Virus record (IMG/VR): IMGVR_UViG_3300022751_000018
Location: 1 to 64,000 of that record
Source of the DNA: a virus
DNA length: 64,000 nucleotides
Reading direction: 5' to 3' (one strand)
In this document: one piece after another, positions 3,142-63,255 of the stretch
How positions within the stretch are numbered: position 1 is the stretch's first letter
Layout of the letters: the number at the start of each line of letters is the position of its first letter
Notes under the pieces: model-generated
Database searches by the model: none
Told to the model about the DNA's origin: nothing
Seen by the model: only the letters and a program-made list of their open reading frames with translations
Translations under genes and position numbers: made by a program

Positions 3142-4368
3142 TTAAATTTCCCCTTTTTTGTATGCTGAAAGAAAGTCATAGGCTTCAACCTTTGGCTTAT
3201 CTGCTTTATCCATCGCCATAACAACTGCTTGTGGCGCTTCTTTTCCTGTTAAAAAACCTTTTAAATAGGTGACTTCATCCCCAATTGCGCATTCAATGGT
3301 ATGACCCATTTCCTTTAGTTTTTTAACGCCATATTGAGCCATTTCATTTAAAGTTAAAATATCTTTATTTGGAATAGTAATATGATCGGCAAGACTTTTT
3401 GCAAAATTTTCTCTTTCATTATTTCTAAGAAGGAATTCTTTTTCATCCATAGCTTTAGCGCCAGATTTTTCCTCATCCTTTTTATCTTCTTTGGATTCTT
3501 TTTCTGACTCGTCTTTAGCGGGAATTTTTTTATCTGCTTCACTTTCGCTATCAGCAATTGCAGCCGCTTTTGCTTCTTTCATTGCACGCACATCTTCACG
3601 TATTTCAGTAATCGCATCCATACAATCTTGAAGAGTAACAGACTTGTCTTTTGACTCATCTTTTTTTGATTCTTCATCTTTCATAGGAGCGTCTTTAGAC
3701 TCATCGTCTTTCTTGTATTCGTTATCAGCCATTTCAATAACCGCCTCTTGATTTGTTTCCGCTTGATCAAGAACCGCTACCAACGCACCCGATCGACCAT
3801 TGTTTACGATTGCAATATGATTGCCTGCGATGTTTTCTTGCACCACTTCGTATTCCTGTCCATTATAAACACCGTTTTGTATTTTGTACAAGCAGGTTGC
3901 TCCAATAGATATTTGTTTTTTTCCTTTTTCCATTTCTTTATTCATGTGGCCTGAAAAAAACATTAAATTAGATTTTAACATTCCGTCAGTTTCATCATAG
4001 AAAACCTCTTGCCCAGTAGCTCCATGTACTATTTTTTCTTCTGGCAAAATTCCATCTTTATTACTCACTGATAAGTAAGCGTGTCCATCAATAATTGGTT
4101 TTATTTTAAAAGAATCTAAAGTGTCACTTGCAGATAATTGCGCTGGAGATCTAAAAACTTTATACATTTTATTAGGATCAATTCCTTCTAAAACATTTCC
4201 ATCTGAATCAATAATGTTTTTCCCGAGATATTCTAATATCCCAGATCGCGCGATAGGGTTTGCTTTAATTTCGAAAAAACCATCTTTATTATAGTTTCTT
4301 TTGCTTTCTGAAATATCAAAAGCTAAATGAATTTCAGATAATTCATTTTGTAATTCAATCGTCGCCAT
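3142..4368 (-). CDS. putative scaffolding / prohead-processing protein with an acidic KDE-rich C-terminal half
   Basis: 408 aa. Long low-complexity acidic stretch (KDDESKDAPMKDEESKKDESKDKS...) typical of scaffold proteins. Position between the MuF-like and capsid genes. Confidence 0.4.
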   Translation of the reverse strand: MATIELQNELSEIHLAFDISESKRNYNKDGFFEIKANPIARSGILEYLGKNIIDSDGNVLEGIDPNKMYKVFRSPAQLSASDTLDSFKIKPIIDGHAYLSVSNKDGILPEEKIVHGATGQEVFYDETDGMLKSNLMFFSGHMNKEMEKGKKQISIGATCLYKIQNGVYNGQEYEVVQENIAGNHIAIVNNGRSGALVAVLDQAETNQEAVIEMADNEYKKDDESKDAPMKDEESKKDESKDKSVTLQDCMDAITEIREDVRAMKEAKAAAIADSESEADKKIPAKDESEKESKEDKKDEEKSGAKAMDEKEFLLRNNERENFAKSLADHITIPNKDILTLNEMAQYGVKKLKEMGHTIECAIGDEVTYLKGFLTGKEAPQAVVMAMDKADKPKVEAYDFLSAYKKGEI

Positions 4369-4384
4369 CTAAATAATCCTCATA

Positions 4385-6265
4385 TTAAAAACGAAATATA
4401 GCTCGCATTTTGCATTTACAATTCTTGCTTGTTATTTCTGTAGATGATACATTGAACCATCCATTATAACTTTCCATGGTGTAAACATGGCCTTCAAATA
4501 TACTACTGACTTTCTTCTCAACGCGAAACAATTTTTGGATGAGGGAATGACTTTGAGAGAGTTTTGCAAAATTAATAAAGTAGGACAAAGTCATTTGACA
4601 AAAGCCCTTAGGAATAGAATTAATTATATTTTGCCAAGCACTATTAAAATCAAAGCTGTGAATGCTAATGGCTCCAAAATTGTCGCAAGATATAATAAAG
4701 GAGAAAGCGTCCAATCTATCTCTATTTTCTATAAAGTTAGTCGGCAAAAAATTAATAGTATCCTTCAGGGGGAAGGAATTATTCTCAGGAATGGAAGTGT
4801 CGCTAGTAAAATCAGAATGTCTAAACTCACCATTGACGAAAGAAAACTTTTGAGCAAATCCGCCAGAAGAGCCAAGCTCAACAATCTTGGACATAAAGCC
4901 AGGAATAAAATTATTGATGATCAAATCGGAAAAGGTGAGGAAGAGCTTTTCAATGTCCTCGTCGCCGATGGATTTATCCCAGAAAGGCAGGCAATTATCG
5001 GTGATTATTGTATCGACATCGACCTCGGGCACATCGCCATGGAAGTTAAATTTAGAGCCAATATCAGTAAATTTGGAGCCGGAAGCCTCGATAGAATAAA
5101 AAAGATCAGCGAAAGTGGTCGTGATTTTTGTTTTTTTGTTATCAATGATCCTGTTGTCATAAGCTTGGCAAGAGACGAGATAATCTCCCTCATTCACGTT
5201 ATTGGCAGGAATCCAGCCCCTCAAGGTCAATATTGGGTGGTTAGGTGTACACTCGATAATCTCTCCGCCATTAAAACTTATGGAGACCATATCCCCTCTA
5301 TACATGTATCTCCAGAGGTTACGACATCCATTAGCAAGAGATACTATAGTTGATCCTGTAAAACAATTTGCTGGAAATCCAGGTAAACCTCGATCTTTAG
5401 AAGGAACTCCTAACGCGGCTTGCTCAGATAATAGATTGTCGAATGAAAATATCTCGCCGTCAATTTTTATATGCGAATGCCTCGGGTATCTTGATTCATA
5501 GGTATAAACCCATTCAAACTCTTTTATTCCTGCATTCATCAATCCTTGCTTGTTAATTGCAGTGTAAGCTTTTCTGGTTTGATCGTATGCTATTCTTGCC
5601 GCTCTACTGCTTACTAGTAAGTTATATTTTCCTAATATTCCAGTCGATTTTTTTTCTGAATGATTAATTATTTTTTCAGAATCTGGTATTAGTGATTTTA
5701 TTCCATCTCCTCCTTCGCTAATGGCGCGCATAACGGATCCAGAAACATCCGTAAAATATTTTTCTTGCAATGAATTTATATAAGTTATGTTTTCTTCAAT
5801 AATTGACTTTGAAATGTCATCAGTTCCTTTTTCCAACACTTCCTTTTTAATTGAAAGTCCGTCTTTCATTTTTCCGAAACTAAAGTTCAAGTTTACTAGG
5901 CTAATATTTTTTGTCTTACGCAACATTTCTTTTGCAATCAATTTTGCTCTTTTATTAAATATATATGAAAATTTAGCTATAAGTGAATTAATCAAAATCC
6001 TAGCTTGAGAGGATATGCTTTTATCGGAATCGTCCTCATCAATAGCAGAAAGTTTATTTTGTTTATTTAAAAATGATTCGAATGCTTTAGATGAAAATAA
6101 TTTTGATAGCTCAAGTGTTGTAGTAAATGTCATGTCATTAACAAGAATCATTATTTGATTATGATAATTTCTTTGAAGTGCAGCATTGTAATTAAGGGTG
6201 TGCCCCTTAATTACATTTTTATCACGATTAAGTAATCGTTTATTCTTCGTAGTCATTTGAATCAT
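4385..6265 (-). CDS. minor head protein, Mu F / SPP1 gp7 family, containing an intein
   Basis: N-extein carries YPRHSHIKIDGEIF, the MuF-like R..H..DG motif. The C-terminus carries SKNCKCK, matching the conserved NCRC end of the family. The frame stays open through an inserted Hint-domain-like segment. The start overlaps the portal gene, as is usual. Confidence 0.6.
   Translation of the reverse strand: MIQMTTKNKRLLNRDKNVIKGHTLNYNAALQRNYHNQIMILVNDMTFTTTLELSKLFSSKAFESFLNKQNKLSAIDEDDSDKSISSQARILINSLIAKFSYIFNKRAKLIAKEMLRKTKNISLVNLNFSFGKMKDGLSIKKEVLEKGTDDISKSIIEENITYINSLQEKYFTDVSGSVMRAISEGGDGIKSLIPDSEKIINHSEKKSTGILGKYNLLVSSRAARIAYDQTRKAYTAINKQGLMNAGIKEFEWVYTYESRYPRHSHIKIDGEIFSFDNLLSEQAALGVPSKDRGLPGFPANCFTGSTIVSLANGCRNLWRYMYRGDMVSISFNGGEIIECTPNHPILTLRGWIPANNVNEGDYLVSCQAYDNRIIDNKKTKITTTFADLFYSIEASGSKFTDIGSKFNFHGDVPEVDVDTIITDNCLPFWDKSIGDEDIEKLFLTFSDLIINNFIPGFMSKIVELGSSGGFAQKFSFVNGEFRHSDFTSDTSIPENNSFPLKDTINFLPTNFIENRDRLDAFSFIISCDNFGAISIHSFDFNSAWQNIINSIPKGFCQMTLSYFINFAKLSQSHSLIQKLFRVEKKVSSIFEGHVYTMESYNGWFNVSSTEITSKNCKCKMRAIFRF
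4487..5353 (+). CDS. antisense ORF nested in the intein, codon-aligned with it. Its status as a gene is uncertain.
   Basis: 288-aa ORF exactly complementary codon-for-codon to intein codons 304-593. Contains HTH-like segments (LREFCKINKVGQSHLTKAL, SISIFYKVSRQKINSIL) and a DUF559/Vsr-like PD-(D/E)XK-like stretch (EELFNVLVADGFIPERQAIIGDYCIDIDLGHIAMEVK). May still be a chance open frame. Confidence 0.15.
   Translation: MAFKYTTDFLLNAKQFLDEGMTLREFCKINKVGQSHLTKALRNRINYILPSTIKIKAVNANGSKIVARYNKGESVQSISIFYKVSRQKINSILQGEGIILRNGSVASKIRMSKLTIDERKLLSKSARRAKLNNLGHKARNKIIDDQIGKGEEELFNVLVADGFIPERQAIIGDYCIDIDLGHIAMEVKFRANISKFGAGSLDRIKKISESGRDFCFFVINDPVVISLARDEIISLIHVIGRNPAPQGQYWVVRCTLDNLSAIKTYGDHIPSIHVSPEVTTSISKRYYS
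4620..5365 (-). other. intein inserted in the MuF-like head protein (about 241-249 aa; C-terminal boundary uncertain)
   Basis: Block A CFTGSTIVSLANG begins at codon 301 (nt 5363-5365). Block B is ECTPNHPILT (the T..H...T motif). Candidate terminal Asn followed by Ser at FDFN|S (4643-4645) or IIN|S (4619-4621). Extein motifs resume afterwards. Confidence 0.5.
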
Positions 6266-7844
6266 TAGACTCCTCTTCAGGCTTTTCTATTATCTTATCC
6301 TCATCAATTCCAGAATAGTTTGATTCCTCATTATGAGCTATTCTTGCTCGCTCCTCTTGAGGGTCAATTGCGCCGGACATAATCAATGTTTGCCCTGTTC
6401 TAGCATCAATCTCGTTAATTTCTGCGACTTCTTTTTGTGTAACAGAATCTAGTTTCTTCCAAGATATTTTGCATGTGAAATCTTTTTTATATTTTGGAGT
6501 TATAATAGATTTCATAATAAGCTCATGATGACGATGAACAATTGGAGTAACTTGCTTCAGCAAAGTTTCAAGACTAAGTCTATATGCCTTCTCTTCTGCA
6601 TCACCAGAATTAAAGCCCTTGGGAGATGTTTCAAGCAGCCGAGATGCAATAACGTTTGAGCCTGCTGCAACTAATTGCAATAGCATCATCTGAACTTCTA
6701 CAACATCGGTAAGAGATGTATCAAACTGCTCCATTCTGTCATCAAGATCCAAGTACTTGGTCCCAGTATTTCTTCGGTTTGCTATGTAATCCTTAGCCTT
6801 CTGTGTAAAATTGTCCTGATTTTGTAATGCTGCCATCATATTAGTAAATACAACGTCCGTTCGCTTAGTGTTTACCAGCTCTACTGCGTCACCTGCTGCG
6901 TGCATTGCATTGTAGACTAACTCTGCTATCAACTGAGGAATAGGAATCCCCCCATATTGGTACATTGGCTTAATCATATCAGGAAGATTTTCCGTTCTAA
7001 GAACGACGCAATGGCTTCGGTGCATGTAAACACCGCCAGGAACATTCCACCAAGTAGGGTTTAAATAATCTTTACTAGCGGGATTACTTGCTGAATTAAA
7101 ATCAAATTCTGGAGTCATATAATAAGGATCAACTTGTGATATCCCCTTATATGATCCAGGTGTTATAGCATCTATATTAAATGGATTCTTATAAAATTCT
7201 TTATTTTTTTCTGCGCTTCCCAAATCAACTACAAAATAAACCACTCTAATTCCGAATACTTTATTTTTATAAATAGCATCCTTTAGATTCTCATGAAGAT
7301 TGAATTGATTATCTAAATCAACCATCTCTTCTATTATTTTTTTATCTACTTTTTTACCGTCATTAACAAGGATGTCAAACCAGTTTCTGATAGCATCCTC
7401 CGCTGGAACTAAGCAGGCTTTATTAATTAACCAATGCTGGCAAAGTATGGCGCATTGCGCGTAGCCAATAAATCTTGTTTGCGCATAATAAGCAAAAATA
7501 TCATTATTATAAAAACCCCATCCACTATTTGCATAGCTTGTATTGTCGCAGCTATCCATTGCAAATCCTGTCTGAGGCTTTGATTTGAATGTAGCTTCAA
7601 TATTTTTCTTTAGAGTTTTATCTATTGAATTATCGCAAATATCCTTCCAAAAAACTTTTAACTCATCTGTTTTTTTTGTTTTGTCTTCGATAGGCTCAAT
7701 TTTTTTTTCGTAAGTTCTATCAAGCGCTTCTTTGTAGAAATCAACTTTATCCGATAATACCGTTAAGCTATTTTTTAGCTCAGTTATTAAAGGATCTTCT
7801 TTCTTCTTAAATTTATCTTTAACGTATGTTACCAATCCGCGCAC
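6240..7844 (-). CDS. portal protein
   Basis: 534 aa, directly downstream of the large terminase gene and overlapping it. Size and position are typical of portals. Confidence 0.6.
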   Translation of the reverse strand: MRGLVTYVKDKFKKKEDPLITELKNSLTVLSDKVDFYKEALDRTYEKKIEPIEDKTKKTDELKVFWKDICDNSIDKTLKKNIEATFKSKPQTGFAMDSCDNTSYANSGWGFYNNDIFAYYAQTRFIGYAQCAILCQHWLINKACLVPAEDAIRNWFDILVNDGKKVDKKIIEEMVDLDNQFNLHENLKDAIYKNKVFGIRVVYFVVDLGSAEKNKEFYKNPFNIDAITPGSYKGISQVDPYYMTPEFDFNSASNPASKDYLNPTWWNVPGGVYMHRSHCVVLRTENLPDMIKPMYQYGGIPIPQLIAELVYNAMHAAGDAVELVNTKRTDVVFTNMMAALQNQDNFTQKAKDYIANRRNTGTKYLDLDDRMEQFDTSLTDVVEVQMMLLQLVAAGSNVIASRLLETSPKGFNSGDAEEKAYRLSLETLLKQVTPIVHRHHELIMKSIITPKYKKDFTCKISWKKLDSVTQKEVAEINEIDARTGQTLIMSGAIDPQEERARIAHNEESNYSGIDEDKIIEKPEEESNDSNDYEE

Positions 7845-9438
7845 TGTGTAGACCTCTTCTTTTATCTTGCTTAGCGAAACAAATTACGGCCGAATCGGCC
7901 CGATTTGGCGATTTTGTTCCATCCGGCTTTTTATCTACCATAATCTTTTTATCATTATCTTTCACAAATCTTGCCTGAGATAGCTCCATTCTTAATTGTG
8001 ATAAACCATCTATTTTACTTGAGATGGAAATAATTTCAGAAGGATCGCAGGGCTTATTAAATTTTATCCATCTGTATGTTAACTGAAAACGTCTTCTAAA
8101 TTCCATCCAGGCTTGCGCTTTTCTGTTTGCAAAATAATCCTTATTGGTAGGTTGGTTCGCTCCCTCTTCATAATATCCTCTATCGCAATATGGGTTTCCA
8201 TCTGGATCAATAACTTTTCCACTTCCGAGAAATGCAAAAACAGGTATTGATCTAATTCTATCTGATCTTGCTTGCGCGTTAAGAACCCTAGCATCTCCTC
8301 TTAATGCTCCGCCAAGACCTACTGCATCATAAGAGATTTCTTCATAATCAAAATCGCGACAAATTTGCATGGATTTTTCTAAGGTTATCATTAGGTCAAT
8401 TCCTTTCCCTGACCATTCATTTTGATATTCAAGCAAAAATGACTGCCTTCCAGTAAAGCAATTTTTATCTGCACCTTGATCGCTGACATCCAGTCCAGCC
8501 AATCTTGGCCCTGAAGGGGTTAATCCTAGTTTTATATGAGCATCAATACACTCATCAATCCATTCCTTAGGGATAATAATTCCCTCAATAGATCCGTAGT
8601 AATCCATCTCATACTCTTGAGCAAAACGTATTAGGCACTCCGCCTCTTCTTTTTTCTTATCGAACCATTCTTGAGTTTTCCGTGGGTCTGAATACCACGG
8701 GAAGCTAAATACCTCAATTTTTCCGCTGAAGCGTTTCCGAGCGAATAAATTGGATGGGCCGCAGGGGGTTGATAACGTTATTCGGCAGTTGGTAGATGCC
8801 ATGAGTGCAGCATCGACTAGTTCTTGATGAGGGTGGAACGCGCTTTCATCGTCCGCGTACATAGAGAATCGGTCTCCCCTGCCCATGTTGTCTCCTGACT
8901 CTCCTGATATATACGCCTGAGTCATCGGGAAATAAATACGCATATCGGCGCTGTGCTTGCGCTCATTCCAATCTCCTGCGAACTCTTTTGGTAAGTGTAT
9001 GATGAAGCGTCGAGCTTTAAACAACAGGGCGCGAGGCATCTTGGCATCGACGTATTCTTTTTTTCGAGAGCCAAAGCCGAAATGGAAGCCCTTGTTGAAT
9101 AAACACTTTGCAACCGCATACGCCACAGTTAATTCACTAATTCCAACATCACGGCTCTTCTCGACAAGAAGACTCTTTCTCTCTCTGAAGCATTCCTCGA
9201 ACTTTTCAATAAGCTCACGCTGACGGGGAAACAAGATGAAAGGCACCATGGCTGGCAGGCCACGCTCAGGATTACGTGGGTCATACGTGGTTCCCCAGTC
9301 ATTGATAAAATCAGCGGGATGCGTCTTGTAGTACTTCCATAGCTTTCTGAACTTATCTTTATCGCGGCGTAACTCTTGCAGTCGCTCAATGCGCTGCTTG
9401 AATATTTCTGCATAAAGTGGCTTTTTAAAGTCGAACAT
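7819..9438 (-). CDS. terL: terminase large subunit
   Basis: 539 aa. ATPase-type motif KSRDVGISELT. Acidic Walker-B-like MYADDESAF. C-terminal nuclease-like region (LAGLDVSDQGADKN). Confidence 0.75.
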   Translation of the reverse strand: MFDFKKPLYAEIFKQRIERLQELRRDKDKFRKLWKYYKTHPADFINDWGTTYDPRNPERGLPAMVPFILFPRQRELIEKFEECFRERKSLLVEKSRDVGISELTVAYAVAKCLFNKGFHFGFGSRKKEYVDAKMPRALLFKARRFIIHLPKEFAGDWNERKHSADMRIYFPMTQAYISGESGDNMGRGDRFSMYADDESAFHPHQELVDAALMASTNCRITLSTPCGPSNLFARKRFSGKIEVFSFPWYSDPRKTQEWFDKKKEEAECLIRFAQEYEMDYYGSIEGIIIPKEWIDECIDAHIKLGLTPSGPRLAGLDVSDQGADKNCFTGRQSFLLEYQNEWSGKGIDLMITLEKSMQICRDFDYEEISYDAVGLGGALRGDARVLNAQARSDRIRSIPVFAFLGSGKVIDPDGNPYCDRGYYEEGANQPTNKDYFANRKAQAWMEFRRRFQLTYRWIKFNKPCDPSEIISISSKIDGLSQLRMELSQARFVKDNDKKIMVDKKPDGTKSPNRADSAVICFAKQDKRRGLHSARIGNIR

Positions 9439-9593: not shown

Positions 9594-10191
9594 TTGTTTG
9601 TCGGTGGTTAGCGTGGTTTTTATTAGTTACATGCTGATAATCGACAAAGAGCCTAGCGTATGACTATCTCTTTAAATGGGAGTCATACCCATGCTATTGA
9701 CGAATAGCATTAGCTTTATGGATTTCGGGGTAAATTCACGCGGTCTGCGAGATGGACGATGTTAGTTGCTATTTATCATCTATAATAAATAGATACAGTT
9801 TTTTGAAAGATTAATTACTGTTCCGTCGATACTCTGCGGAGAAATTTAACTTTCAGACAACGTGTTGTAAGTTTGCAGTCTTAAAAATTGAAACTTTCTA
9901 GCTGAAGTAATTGATCAGCGAAAGAGTTGCTATTTCTCAACTAAAATAGCGGTGTACATTGTATGGACTTACACCTTAAAACTTATAAGAACATTCAGTG
10001 CATTTGTTAGTTTGGTACTTAAAATTAAATTATACTTTCTAACCTTCGCTTTCAGGGGACAATGTTTAAGACAATAATGAAGCTACGTTTTGCAAGTTTA
10101 CGGTAAATACAGGAAACTTCCACGAAATAACTGTTTACGGGTATTTCTACGGCTTTGCAAGTTTGCGCTAAACAGGAAACTTGAACTTTGT

Positions 10192-10264
10192 GCACGCATA
10201 GGCTCAGTTGGTAGAGCGGTTGGCTTAATGCTGGCGAGCGCTGGTTCGAGTCCAGCTGCGTGCA
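10192..10264 (+). tRNA. tRNA-like gene with canonical acceptor, D and T arms but an irregular anticodon stem. Loop is CTTAATG; anticodon uncertain, possibly UAA.
   Basis: Acceptor GCACGCA/TGCGTGC. D arm GCTCAGTTGGTAGAGC. T arm GCTGGTTCGAGTCCAGC. One extra nucleotide sits at positions 8-9, and the anticodon stem would need three G-U pairs. Confidence 0.45.
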
Positions 10265-10270
10265 ATTTAT

Positions 10271-10346
10271 GCAGACGTCGCCTAGTGGTTAAGGCACTTG
10301 CTTGTCAAGCAAGGTATCGTGGGTTCAAATCCCATCGTCTGCGCCA
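10271..10346 (+). tRNA. tRNA-Asp (anticodon GTC), CCA encoded
   Basis: Acceptor GCAGACG/CGTCTGC. D arm GCCTAGTGGTTAAGGC. Anticodon arm CTTGC-TTGTCAA-GCAAG. T arm GTGGGTTCAAATCCCAT. Ends GCCA. Confidence 0.8.
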
Positions 10347-10355
10347 ATTTATTAT

Positions 10356-10428
10356 GTGAGTATAGCTCAGCGGTAGTAGCAGCGGACTCATAATCCGTCG
10401 GTCAATGGTTCGAATCCATTTGCTCGCA
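10356..10428 (+). tRNA. tRNA-Met/Ile2 type (anticodon CAT)
   Basis: Acceptor GTGAGTA/TGCTCGC with two G-U pairs. Anticodon arm GCGGA-CTCATAA-TCCGT. T arm AATGGTTCGAATCCATT. Confidence 0.6.
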
Positions 10429-10434
10429 ATTATG

Positions 10435-37097: not shown

Positions 37098-37170
37098 GCG
37101 ATAGTAGCTCAATTGGCAGAGCGCCTGGTTTCCACCTAGGAGGTTGCACGTTCAACTCGTGTCTGTCGCT
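37098..37170 (+). tRNA. tRNA-Gly (anticodon TCC)
   Basis: Acceptor GCGATAG/CTGTCGC. D arm GCTCAATTGGCAGAGC. Anticodon arm CCTGG-TTTCCAC-CTAGG. T arm GCACGTTCAACTCGTGT. Confidence 0.7.
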
Positions 37171-37177
37171 AATCTTT

Positions 37178-37251
37178 CCGTCAATCGTATAATGGCATTA
37201 CCTTGGCCTCCAAAGCCAAAGATTTGAGTTCGATTCTTAATTGACGGGCCA
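37178..37251 (+). tRNA. tRNA-Trp (anticodon CCA), CCA encoded
   Basis: Acceptor CCGTCAA/TTGACGG. Anticodon arm TTGGC-CTCCAAA-GCCAA. T arm TTGAGTTCGATTCTTAA. Ends GCCA. Confidence 0.7.
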
Positions 37252-61395: not shown

Positions 61396-61939
61396 GCGTG
61401 CTTACTGACGCTGTAGCTTTAGTTATCTGATCATCATTAGCAGGAGTTCCTTGTTTAATGCCAGTTGGCACTGTATTAGAGTTAGCAGGATTTTTAGGTG
61501 TAATTCCATATTTTGGCTGAGTAAATAGTGCTTGCTGAAATGTTATCTGAATATCAATTCCTGAATAATTATCAGCATATTGCTTGGTCGGCAAAGCAGT
61601 TATATACATGTCTGTATAGGAGTTTACTTTCGACTGAACTATAAGCTTTGTCTTATCATAAAAAGCATCGTAAATTTTAAAATAAACAGATTGATAATCA
61701 ATATTTACTAATTTGCAGCTAAGCTTTATTTCTAATGGCTGAATGACGTCATGATCTGCAATTATTGAGCCATCCTCAACGGGATGATACATTATTCTGC
61801 TGTGTAAATTATCTTGAAAATCCAATATTCCTAATGTATTAATAATAGGGTTAAAATCAGAATCACAAACTCTAACTTGATTTTGCCTAGGGCGTCTTCC
61901 GCCTATAATTTCATTAGCTAAGTCAGTTATACCAGCCAT
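61376..61939 (-). CDS. hypothetical tail protein
   Basis: 187-aa ORF. Confidence 0.3.
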   Translation of the reverse strand: MAGITDLANEIIGGRRPRQNQVRVCDSDFNPIINTLGILDFQDNLHSRIMYHPVEDGSIIADHDVIQPLEIKLSCKLVNIDYQSVYFKIYDAFYDKTKLIVQSKVNSYTDMYITALPTKQYADNYSGIDIQITFQQALFTQPKYGITPKNPANSNTVPTGIKQGTPANDDQITKATASVSTLAPKVA

Positions 61940-63255
61940 TATATTACCTCTCCAGATCTAAAAGTATGCGTTGACTTCCATAATTGACTCATAAATCTTT
62001 TATCTATTAAATCTGAAAACATCTTTTGCGCATCAGGAGCTTGAGTGACTACGGTAACATTATTCATTCTAAAACTTTGATCATTATTCATTTGAGTTTG
62101 ATTGCTATTATTTGCTATTGCGCCGGAAGTTTGGCTGTTTACTGGGCTATTTGAATATTTATATAAATCTAATGATGATCCATTATATAAATCAACTTTA
62201 TCATCATTATTGTCAAATAATCCTAGCAACCTTGATAGTGGAGATTTTTTATCTAAATCTATATCCCCAGAAATCATATCGTCGGCAGTATATTTTCCTC
62301 CAATCGCATTTTTACTAGCCAAGCTAATAGCATCTACAGATCCCTTTCTCTTATTTTCAAAAGCATTAAATTTTTCAAAAAGTGGCATCAACTTTTCCAT
62401 TGAAACAACAATCAGCGCTACTGAAGCAGCTATTCCAACAAATTCTATATTGGCTAGAACTAATGCGGCGCTTAAACCAGTAAATCCTGCCGCAATTAAC
62501 AATAAGGCAGCTTTTGTTTGCTCGGGATGCTTTCTGAGCTCTATGAGCCCCTCTGTTATGCCTTTTAAGAAAGTATTTATTGTAGGGGCTAGCTCTATCA
62601 TAGCTAATAAAAAATTATTTTTAAGCGTATTGCTAGTATCTAGCAAATTATCGTTAAGCTCTTTTAATTTAAGTGCCTCTTCATGGGTAGCCACTCCCAA
62701 TTCTTTTTGATGATCAAGTAATTTTTTAAGAGCGGGGCCTCCTATAGTTAACATTTGAGCAAAAGAATCTGTAAAAGTATATTGCTCTGCAATAGTATCC
62801 TTTTGTTTTTGATTGTAGTGAGAAAATGTATTGGCCAACTGGCTTAATTCAACATCAGTTATTAATTCTGGGGTGGTTCCAAAATATTTGGCAACTCCTT
62901 TGATATTTTGTGCCGCCTCACCCTTTTTACCTCCAAAATGCTCTAATGCCTGATCATAAGCTTGAAGGGTGCTTATATTAAGGCCCATTTGATCCGCTTG
63001 ATAGGCAAGTGCGGTCGTATACTGCCTTGCACCTTCAAGACCTTTAAATAAAGCGCTTGCACTTAAGCCTGCTGCAACAAAACCAGCTACAGATTTGACT
63101 AGGTTAGTAAATGATTCGGTGAGTTTTTCAGTATAGCCATCGGCGTCTTTTAGAGAGGTTTTAAACTCATCCATAGACTTCTTGGCTTCTTTAGTTCCTT
63201 GTTTTACACCTTTAGTGTCGGTTTTGAAGGTGATGTATAGTGTTTGGAAATCCAT
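61939..63255 (-). CDS. tape measure protein (short, 438 aa)
   Basis: Helical, with a hydrophobic segment (ALLLIAAGFTGLSAALVLANIEFVGIAASVALIVV). Located downstream of two small overlapping chaperone-like ORFs and upstream of the baseplate genes. Confidence 0.5.
   Translation of the reverse strand: MDFQTLYITFKTDTKGVKQGTKEAKKSMDEFKTSLKDADGYTEKLTESFTNLVKSVAGFVAAGLSASALFKGLEGARQYTTALAYQADQMGLNISTLQAYDQALEHFGGKKGEAAQNIKGVAKYFGTTPELITDVELSQLANTFSHYNQKQKDTIAEQYTFTDSFAQMLTIGGPALKKLLDHQKELGVATHEEALKLKELNDNLLDTSNTLKNNFLLAMIELAPTINTFLKGITEGLIELRKHPEQTKAALLLIAAGFTGLSAALVLANIEFVGIAASVALIVVSMEKLMPLFEKFNAFENKRKGSVDAISLASKNAIGGKYTADDMISGDIDLDKKSPLSRLLGLFDNNDDKVDLYNGSSLDLYKYSNSPVNSQTSGAIANNSNQTQMNNDQSFRMNNVTVVTQAPDAQKMFSDLIDKRFMSQLWKSTHTFRSGEVI

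Follow-up and report, generated by a model that had tools for sequence, protein, structure and literature searches.

The 64,000-nucleotide stretch analysed here (positions 1 to 64,000 of the IMG/VR virus record IMGVR_UViG_3300022751_000018; hereafter the window) carries on its minus strand, at 4385..6265, an open reading frame (ORF) of 626 codons plus stop for the precursor of a minor head protein like MuF and SPP1 gp7. As judged from its sequence, this head protein carries a class-1 intein of 315 amino acids, Cys301-Asn615 (4421..5365, minus strand), followed by C616. Wholly within the intein, on the opposite strand, lies an ATG-initiated ORF of 288 codons plus TGA (4487..5353, plus strand) that is codon-aligned with the intein frame. 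Homologues, free-standing copies, predicted fold, codon avoidance and frame conservation agree in indicating that this ORF is a real gene for a Vsr-like homing endonuclease, which would be expressed and would cleave DNA.

The identity of the host gene was established from family profiles and from its position. Phage_Mu_F (Pfam PF04233) matches precursor residues 174-301 at 29.7 bits, just over its cut-off of 29.6; the head-morphogenesis families phrog_324 (E 1.3e-34) and phrog_15127 match in PHROGs, and phageSPP1_gp7 (NCBIfam TIGR01641) matches at E 1.4e-7, under its cut-off. An earlier note, made by a model from the letters alone, had read the ORF in the same way and quoted four strings, YPRHSHIKIDGEIF, CFTGSTIVSLANG (with Cys301), ECTPNHPILT and NCKC; all four are present, and Pfam and PHROGs support the assignment. 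The gene order is terminase (7819..9438), portal (6240..7844), MuF, and beyond it scaffold-like and capsid genes. MuF usually comes next after the portal gene, as it does here, and homologous loci have portal genes of family PF06381 in the corresponding position. Purine skew is negative across the flanking minus-strand genes and positive exactly over 4500-5250. The locus has no relative at the DNA level in the phage collection searched by blastn, and its TerL shares at most 49% identity with that of any phage in the searched collection.

A search with the whole precursor returned 48 relatives, mostly of about 600 amino acids and with the insertion, and an alignment of 43 homologues was used both for the conserved columns and for AlphaFold2. 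The intein was delimited against P0061, an intein-free homologue of 355 amino acids (...SHIKIDGKIFSF...RGLPGVPINCKCVFKPIIDF) that has ...GLPGVPINCKCVFKPII and ...PINCKCVFKPII at the junction and contains ...PINCKCV.... With a slash for each boundary, the window reads ...RGLPGFPAN/CFTGST...EITSKN/CKCKMRAIFRF, the C-terminal junction in its longer context being ...GHVYTMESYNGWFNVSSTEITSKN615/C616KC. The N-extein, which ends ...GLPGFPAN, thus comprises residues 1-300 (5366..6265), as the alignment and the junction DNA place it, and the C-extein, CKCKMRAIFRF, comprises residues 616-626 with the stop codon (4385..4420), its counterpart in P0061 being CKCVFKPIIDF. It is this alignment, together with the conserved columns of C301, block B, block F, N615 and C616, that assigns residues 301-615 to the predicted intein. 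Because the intein-free homologue reads ...PINCKCV..., splicing would restore the conserved N-C-K-C motif; the reconstituted intein-free DNA site in the window is ...CCTGGATTTCCAGCAAAT/TGTAAATGCAAAATGCGAGC..., also written TCTAAAGATCGAGGTTTACCTGGATTTCCAGCAAAT/TGTAAATGCAAAATGCGAGC.

The earlier note had recognized the intein, and Hint motifs, an intein-free allele, mini-intein alleles and fold matches that are nearly all to inteins bear it out. It had suggested that alignment with an intein-free MuF homologue would locate the insertion, and the flanks do rejoin at N/CKC. Its dimensions need correction, however: the insert is of 315 rather than about 240 amino acids, by the P0061 alignment and the conserved columns, and the C-terminal junction is not FDFN/S or IIN/S. 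Both of those candidate splice sites are ruled out by their location in the non-conserved, unstructured middle of the intein and by the intein-free allele, which puts the junction at SKN/C. The NCKC string noted at the C terminus is present, but consists of the last Asn of the intein followed by the C-extein.

Within the intein the two lobes of a Hint domain can be told apart from the region between them. The N-terminal lobe (residues 301-421; 5003..5365) contains block A, CFTGSTIVSLANG, and block B, ECTPNHPILT; C301 is invariant in the 43 homologues, and T340, N342, H343 and P344 of block B are near-invariant. The C-terminal lobe (residues 577-615; 4421..4537) contains block F, GHVYTMESYNGWF, in which H593, V594, Y595, G602 and W603 are conserved and H593 near-invariant, and block G, EITSKN; N615 and C616 are near-invariant. 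A Hint match anywhere in residues 301-550 had been called for in advance, and Pfam Intein_splicing (PF14890) was found at residues 315-384 (E 2.6e-7, 31 bits), below its gathering score; NCBIfam intein_Nterm also matches the precursor, under its cut-off. In the AlphaFold2 model of the precursor, the MuF part and both Hint lobes are folded. Block means of the model's per-residue confidence score (pLDDT) are mostly 60-85 in the N-terminal lobe (below 50 at residues 369-378) and 62-85 in the C-terminal lobe. When this model was compared with the PDB by Foldseek, the top 31 matches were all inteins (probability 0.41-1.00, E 4e-3 to 1e-1). Two relatives, P0051 (481 amino acids) and P0060 (456 amino acids), are mini-intein alleles in which both lobes are kept and most of the middle is gone. 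The deletion also removes the N-terminal two-thirds of the antisense endonuclease gene.

The product of the plus-strand ORF is modelled by AlphaFold2 at a mean pLDDT of 82, with two helix-turn-helix (HTH) modules, a helical linker and an alpha/beta domain. The putative DNA-binding HTH modules (residues 7-44 and 62-95; 4505..4771) are seen as helices in the model, in weak Pfam matches to HTH_7 and HTH_28, and in a match to the tandem-HTH structure 2LVS of the PDB (E 1.1e-6). The predicted nuclease domain (residues about 150-288; 4934..5350) has a Vsr-type fold in the model and carries three residues, E151, D177 and E186, that are invariant in the family. Searched against PDB sequences by phmmer as a single sequence, the protein had no match; the family profile was needed, and with hmmsearch it reached 3R3P, the homing endonuclease I-Bth0305I, at E 1.8e-5. 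A member of the family from Gordonia matches DUF559 (8e-5) and, weakly, vsr. Likewise, a word-indexed protein search with the single sequence found one homologue and an alignment was required as query for more; a profile search of 1.84 billion cluster representatives then gave 1,392 with E<=1e-30, of which most are full-length proteins of about 290-300 amino acids. The suggestion of the earlier note that the intein may lack a recognizable endonuclease domain is thus right for the intein's own frame, where residues 424-576 stay below a pLDDT of 50, and wrong for the element, since a Vsr-like gene lies antisense within it.

The family is widespread in phages and occurs in two arrangements. By tblastn, the plus-strand ORF matches 59 phage records, from Salmonella, Pseudomonas, Gordonia, Klebsiella, Acinetobacter, Edwardsiella, Aggregatibacter/Haemophilus and Vibrio phages, and the features annotated under the matches are a MuF/head-morphogenesis gene or an unnamed hypothetical protein. 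In all eight phage loci checked by strand, the endonuclease is antisense within the head/MuF gene, and in none is the embedded ORF annotated. In three Acinetobacter phage records, by contrast, it is a free-standing annotated coding sequence (CDS) adjoining an intein-free MuF. The one of these that was inspected, in phage IME285 (L004:413-2127), is convergent with a short intein-free MuF gene (...LPMCKCRAKL), its stop codon lying 54 nt from the MuF CKC codons; opposite the endonuclease none of the three frames is open, and the antisense frame contains 12 stops. A metagenome locus (L016:1261-2840) likewise has a free-standing copy tail-to-tail with an intein-free MuF, its antisense frame full of stops. 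Upstream of the IME285 ATG, the antisense reading 'NHVHSLM-stop' resembles block F (GHVHNLQME in L002), the two agreeing at 5 of 23 positions. An embedded origin of the free-standing form is hinted at by this likeness, which is nevertheless too weak to decide the matter.

In the window and in ten other loci with the endonuclease inside the intein, the two ORFs read the same triplets as reverse complements of each other (plus-strand residue p pairs with minus-strand residue 594-p), and both frames are open in all 11. What keeps the minus frame open is the avoidance of TTA, CTA and TCA by the endonuclease gene. In the window, that gene has 22 Leu codons without a TTA or CTA among them, and 25 Ser codons without a TCA (P about 1.4e-11), whereas in the rest of the window TTA makes up 39% and CTA 12% of Leu codons, and TCA 31% of Ser codons. 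Synonymous-recoding simulations gave about 18-19 expected stops over the full overlap in either direction, with openness by chance at about 1e-10.4 to 1e-10.9. The contrast with the free-standing arrangement is plain: against the 12 antisense stops in IME285, there are none in each of eight embedded copies counted. The window also encodes phage tRNAs for Leu(UAA), Asp and Met at 10191..10429, and for Gly and Trp at 37098..37251; tRNA-Leu(UAA) reads TTA, which is the Leu codon used most in this genome and belongs to the three codons that neither of the overlapping ORFs contains.

These data bear on a first alternative, that the element is an ordinary mini-intein or a decaying intein and the long antisense ORF a functionless by-product. 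Long antisense ORFs are indeed common in GC-rich genomes, such as those of the Gordonia and Pseudomonas phage loci (GC 0.62-0.68), and annotators have never called the embedded ORF within a MuF gene. The window, however, has a GC content of 36%, at which the chance of such openness is about 1e-11; free-standing homologues are intact though their antisense frame is closed; the Shine-Dalgarno-like motif and ATG are conserved; and a confident Vsr-like model goes together with sequence homology to I-Bth0305I. The plus frame is, moreover, the better conserved of the two. We therefore consider a by-product very unlikely.

The difference in conservation is clearest in the middle of the intein. Between the Hint lobes lies a linker (residues 424-576; 4538..4996) that has no confident predicted fold and is the reverse complement of the endonuclease gene. 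Its pLDDT is 25-39 in spite of the 43-sequence alignment. In three independent locus pairs, the plus-strand amino acid was kept while the minus-strand one changed in 99 codons of this region, against 33 codons for the reverse (p 7.5e-9), and substitutions were concentrated at plus-strand third positions (248 versus 191, p 0.0075). Because of this plus-frame conservation and the third-position bias, the intein middle is best read as an endonuclease gene first, its minus-strand reading being just a tolerated linker. The opposite view, that residues 424-576 form a novel in-frame endonuclease or DNA-binding domain to which the plus-strand ORF is secondary, could appeal to the fact that the minus frame is kept open and that motifs such as FNFHGD are conserved in it. 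But FHGD is what the nuclease motif I-A-M-E gives when read in reverse complement, and I-A-M-E is conserved too in free-standing copies, whose minus frame is broken; besides being less conserved than the plus frame and lacking a predicted fold, the region is deleted in P0051 and P0060, and has no convincing match in Pfam or PHROG (the sole match, Cloacin_immun at 475-505, has E 0.1 and 13 bits against a cut-off of 25 bits). An in-frame domain of this kind is, in our judgement, most improbable.

The endonuclease gene is nested within the intein in the same way throughout. In 10 of 10 embedded loci checked, its ATG lies opposite the His codon of block F (G-H-V-Y), 60-66 nt inside the 3' boundary of the intein, and its stop codon lies 3-45 nt inside the 5' boundary; with both start and stop inside these boundaries, the whole ORF would travel with the intein. 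All loci checked have a Shine-Dalgarno-like sequence (GGAGGT, GAGGT, GAGAT, AAGGTG or GGTG) at about -13 to -7 before the ATG. In the window it is GGTG, and together with the ATG, which is the reverse complement of the His593 codon, it occupies 4478..4489 on the plus strand. Read in antisense, the motif corresponds to residues N-L-E of block F, which are T-M-E in the window.

Over 5003..5353, the Hint N lobe on the minus strand faces the nuclease core and its C-terminal beta extension on the plus strand. Plus-strand residues 173-288 lie opposite intein residues 306-421, blocks A and B included, and comprise the strand of the catalytic E186, the next alpha/beta unit, which aligns to I-Bth0305I, and the C-terminal beta extension, which free-standing copies also have. 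AlphaFold2 predicts both frames to be folded in this segment of about 117 codons. In contrast to the intein middle, the two frames are equally conserved here (49 versus 46 discordant codons), and changes are much rarer at second codon positions than at first and third ones. In recoding simulations that keep the Hint sequence, the plus frame is open by chance with a probability of about 7e-4. One reading is that this is true bidirectional coding, in which the Hint N lobe and the last beta-alpha unit and beta extension of the nuclease, each with independent non-overlapping relatives, are both apparently under purifying selection, while the ribosome-binding site and start codon of the endonuclease are also built from the antisense of block F (H-V-Y-N-L-E). 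On the conservation and the models, we place this reading evenly between acceptance and doubt. If it is true, a pair of ancient folds would be encoded codon-for-codon on opposite strands, naturally and widely, in phages of Actinobacteria and Proteobacteria, as the Rodin-Ohno sense/antisense hypothesis postulates. The statement of Gosselin and colleagues that places secondary ORFs outside the splicing domain (10.1101/2025.01.02.630785) would then be contradicted as well.

Taken together, the observations make it highly likely that the locus holds a composite mobile element, inserted at a codon boundary in the N/C(K or R)C motif of MuF and made up of a minus-strand intein and a plus-strand homing endonuclease, the homing and the splicing being deduced from sequences and models. 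On the minus strand, the Hint N lobe, a linker of about 150 residues and the Hint C lobe would be translated within the head protein, and the intein would excise itself, joining N300 to C616. From the plus strand, the HTH-HTH-Vsr-like endonuclease would be made from its own Shine-Dalgarno-like sequence and ATG, and, in co-infecting phages whose MuF allele has no intein, would cut this allele near the NCKC-coding site. Repair off the intein-bearing copy would then move intein and endonuclease together, while protein splicing would remove an otherwise harmful insertion, including the meaningless peptide encoded antisense to the endonuclease. Intein-free, full and mini alleles coexist in one clade, among relatives at 37-46% identity; as far as these sequences go, this is the pattern of a homing cycle with all stages present.

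Several points tell against this composite element. The Intein_splicing score of 31 bits falls short of the gathering cut-off of 35.8, and the Foldseek E-values, weak because the whole 626-amino-acid precursor was the query, are only about 4e-3 at best. The penultimate residue of the intein is Lys (K614) instead of the usual His, and S, H, R or A in relatives. Many splicing-competent inteins lack a penultimate His. For the endonuclease, the alignment used by AlphaFold2 is probably mostly of intein-embedded sequences, so that its covariation is not fully independent of Hint constraint. The Lys of the E-V-K in the window copy is not conserved in the family, the His of Vsr- and EDxHD-type enzymes is absent from it, and the catalytic competence of this copy is uncertain from its sequence. 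A promoter scan around the locus found 11 sites, as compared with 11.2 in shuffled sequence, and thus no significant promoter, and transcription of the plus-strand gene would run head-on into the late structural operon. Splicing, transcription and translation of the plus-strand gene, and DNA cleavage are all things that we infer on a computational basis.

The catalytic residues also bear on a third alternative, that the architecture is as described but immobile, with an endonuclease that has lost its activity or has taken on another role, such as DNA-binding regulation, and an intein passed on vertically. The window copy has E151, D177 and E186, but of the EDxHD set neither a conserved His nor a second Asp can be assigned in it; Gordonia copies have a His after the catalytic Glu that the window copy lacks (VAVEVLGGNWHG versus IAMEVKFRAN). 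About 35 metagenomic relatives of about 590-620 amino acids, at more than 90% query cover, apparently all bear the intein, as vertical inheritance could produce, and vertical-looking patterns are reported for some VSR-type inteins (10.1101/2025.01.02.630785). Against this, the three family-invariant residues are intact, the ORF has been kept open against strong mutational odds, and the coexistence of the three kinds of allele in one clade is what homing would leave behind. An immobile element is therefore unlikely, if less so than a by-product.

A last alternative is that the locus is a fractured gene, in which a split intein flanks an intervening endonuclease (Dassa-type), or that it contains a group I intron, and not a contiguous intein. 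Vsr-like endonucleases were first tied to inteins in a split arrangement, according to work cited in the preprint (10.1101/2025.01.02.630785), and one relative has a stop in the intein frame. In the window and the ten other embedded loci, however, the minus frame runs on without a break from one extein to the other; for the window itself, a single uninterrupted ORF of 626 codons, with no stop antisense to the endonuclease gene, excludes a split intein or fractured gene. Group I and group II introns are set aside by the in-frame insertion with its Hint motifs and by a search with Rfam, which over 4000..6600 at E<=1 found no intron family. We regard this whole class of explanations as vanishingly improbable.

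The relative with the stop is an Aaphi23-like prophage (L013:2851-4200; GCA_021310225.1, JABKAD010000003.1). It has one nonsense codon in the intein frame (LACEIK-stop-TFD), at a position that is Gln in phage Aaphi23 (L007), and the gene caller splits its MuF in two; the antisense endonuclease ORF is intact. The prophage may be defective, or the locus may be on its way to a split arrangement.

Inteins with an antisense endonuclease are a rare arrangement that has been described before, the first report for a Vsr-like enzyme being a preprint of 2025. In a survey of actinobacteriophages, 'non-canonical' inteins with antisense LAGLIDADG or VSR-like endonucleases were reported, among them those of MuF-like minor capsid proteins (Gosselin, Arsenault & Gogarten 2025, bioRxiv 10.1101/2025.01.02.630785); Supplemental Table 1 of that preprint lists Gordonia phages Malisha gp5, Vivi2 gp14, Angelicage, Affeca and Fosterous as 'VSR -1 ORF', and matches of its VSR-type endonucleases to Vsr (1CW0) and 3R3P are reported there, as obtained also for the window protein. 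The plus-strand ORF of the window matches Malisha, Vivi2, Fosterous, Affeca and Angelicage by tblastn at E 2e-9 to 2e-12, and Malisha (L005) and Vivi2 (L011) have the insertion at N/C(K or R)C and the same codon-aligned antisense register. The window element thus belongs, by sequence, to this antisense VSR-type MuF intein family. It shares with the Gordonia inteins its host protein family, insertion point, intein class and codon-aligned antisense endonuclease, and differs in residing in an uncultured AT-rich phage. Beyond the actinobacteriophages surveyed, we find members in Edwardsiella, Klebsiella, Salmonella, Pseudomonas, Vibrio and Aggregatibacter phages. The preprint remarks that such secondary ORFs are typically outside the splicing domain; in the window, Malisha and Vivi2, by contrast, no more than 63-105 nt of the intein lie outside the ORF, which also overlaps with the Hint N lobe.

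Other known systems share single traits with the element. Antisense LAGLIDADG endonucleases occur in inteins of Synechocystis DnaX and a Chloroflexus SpoVR-like protein (Gorbalenya 1998; Gogarten 2002, as cited in 10.1101/2025.01.02.630785); going by that account, the endonuclease there also lies opposite a contiguous intein, while nuclease family and host genes differ from those of the window. In fractured genes, a free-standing Vsr-like endonuclease gene lies between the halves of a split intein (Dassa et al. 2009, as cited in the same preprint); as described there, the association of a Vsr-like endonuclease with an intein is common to both, but two ORFs trans-splice where the window has one continuous frame. 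I-Bth0305I (PDB 3R3P), of the EDxHD family, is encoded in sense by a group I intron of a Bacillus phage; two HTH modules at the N terminus and the lack of an obvious His after the catalytic Glu set the window protein apart. The ShiLan domain is a hidden, out-of-frame HNH endonuclease in an insertion in a phage methylase (Arsenault et al. 2025, PMC11855218). Like the window element, it places an endonuclease in an alternative frame of an insertion that is open in the host frame, but on the same strand, in the +2 frame, with an HNH nuclease and no Hint splicing domain.

The free-standing copies resemble a further system. Free-standing homing endonuclease genes beside their target gene are known from intronless homing in T-even phages, and in IME285 and at L016 the endonuclease gene likewise stands by itself, converging on the 3' end of a MuF gene that has no intein. 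In the window, by contrast, it lies within the intein, which allows the insertion to be placed in the coding sequence.

Some further observations concern the host gene and the rest of the window. The MuF proteins that carry the intein in Aaphi23 (L007:2284-4686) and Vivi2 (L011:848-4171) have long C-terminal extensions past NCRC, giving total lengths of 801 and about 1100 amino acids, respectively; these extensions are consistent with MuF-fused cargo or toxin domains, the intein being upstream of the cargo. Within MuF codons ~17-26 of the window, just downstream of the portal/MuF overlap, is a 12-bp perfect inverted repeat with a 5-nt loop (TGTAATTAAGGG-TGTGC-CCCTTAATTACA; 6187..6215), scored in the scan as terminator-like on the plus strand and unusual within a coding region. 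A second long antisense pair was considered, a plus-strand ORF of 202 amino acids (62102..62710) within a minus-strand ORF of 438 amino acids (61939..63255); its product is of low complexity, rich in S, L and F, and the ORF was rejected as probably spurious.

If the proposed element is as we describe it, one DNA stretch holds two genes, a spreading endonuclease being written on the back of the intein that makes its insertion harmless, and the sole coding cost of this dual layout would be the avoidance of three codons. The AT-rich window provides far cleaner double-openness statistics than the GC-rich actinophages of the first report, and the case adds free-standing relatives at the MuF 3' end and the presence of intein-free, full and mini-intein alleles in one clade. 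Annotation pipelines miss the embedded ORFs, so that inteins of this kind are mistaken for decaying ones or ones that have no endonuclease. Two folded domains that apparently overlap so deeply offer a natural test bed for the limits of antisense dual coding. The nuclease, whose family reaches phages of several proteobacterial pathogens, is a candidate for a site-specific enzyme directed at the conserved NCKC-coding sequence of MuF.

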